Source: a virus. From it: DNA of 42,984 nt. The DNA is taken from the IMG/VR virus record IMGVR_UViG_3300009690_000002. One strand, 5' to 3'. Below, a report on this DNA, generated by a model with database tools, continues. The DNA is not shown here.

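Follow-up and report, generated by a model that had tools for sequence, protein, structure and literature searches.

Ends and overlapping genes of the window

The first 123 bases of the window (1-123) are identical to the last 123 (42862-42984), and the sequence therefore represents a circular assembly, or one that is briefly redundant at its termini, with 42,861 bases of unique sequence. On the minus strand, the ORF for the RepB'-like primase fused to a RepA/DnaB-like helicase has about 100 nt in common with the start of polA (1610-1710). This arrangement resembles the annotated overlap in Arthrobacter phage Jasmine (68 nt), in Adat, in Microbacterium phage Shocker and in ctEqG8, and it may therefore reflect translational coupling. 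A further minus-strand ORF encoding 90 aa (42591-42863), to which no function is assigned, shares 65% identity with Shocker gp3, whereas the remaining shared proteins are just 25-36% identical. Judged by these identities, the difference suggests either recent exchange or strong constraint. Finally, in the region ~40838-41468, a plus-strand WhiB-like match (to the WhiB proteins of ctEqG8 and Jasmine) is overlapped by a minus-strand ORF similar to the annotated Holliday-junction resolvase of Jasmine. Given that the Jasmine annotation contains the same two-strand overlap, either the WhiB-like or the resolvase call may be an error.

A palindrome array and a second dispersed word

A dense non-coding array of palindromic units, GTACTAGTAC, occupies positions 13955-14120 and comprises 12 overlapping matches to GTACTAGTA. 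It includes the run AAGTACTAGTACTAGTACTAGTACTT, which is flanked by inverted AT-rich repeats, and lies ~280 bp away from the tandem pair of phage-word copies at 14394 and 14416. The array may be an operator cluster or the replication origin. The window also carries a second dispersed word, AGTTCCAG, with 16 copies where 3.2 would be expected (p = 3e-7), divided 9:7 between the strands; every copy is intragenic (for example at 2764, 3458, 24700 and 38091).

Hairpins, base composition and words in other genomes

The scan of genomes for inverted-pair hairpins recovered CCCCTGTAGG...CCTACAGGGG in many members of the Pseudomonas fluorescens group (comparison loci L066-L143), where these hairpins probably represent REP/REPIN elements. 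As each locus holds only 2-6 copies at 60% GC, the hairpins seem to have no relation to the phage word.

Jasmine and Adat have a GC content of 46% compared with 63.4% for their host (PMC5513430), and both encode an Lsr2-like gene within the terminal repeat, which together suggest an interplay with xenogeneic silencing. A single tblastn search of the window, with the Jasmine protein as sole query, returned no match for an Lsr2 homolog.

Short enriched words may be widespread among phage genomes and too little studied. PrincessTrina contains 26 copies of GAGCTCA (2.5 expected), Kitkat 44 of GGTCAGG (11.3 expected) and CPAS-15 nine of CGTTGACA (0.1 expected), the last of which is probably a promoter -35 element. 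The third hyper-abundant word of Shocker, TAGGGTA (25 copies, 0.8 expected), is distinct from its CTGT words: it is intergenic, frequently tandem and oriented with the neighbouring genes (for example at 522-721, 1915-1927, 31222-31231 and 44321-44394 of the Shocker genome, L187), and resembles a promoter element of the -10 type (TANNNT). Bacillus phage BSP19 and Weizmannia phage Youna2 share the hyper-abundant word CTGCGGA / CCTGCGGA and a fusion of a DnaG-type primase with an MCM-like ATPase. Both also possess genes for 7-deazaguanine synthesis (QueC/D/E, FolE) and probably carry modified G in their DNA; it is therefore possible that the CTGCGGA / CCTGCGGA word interacts with this modification.
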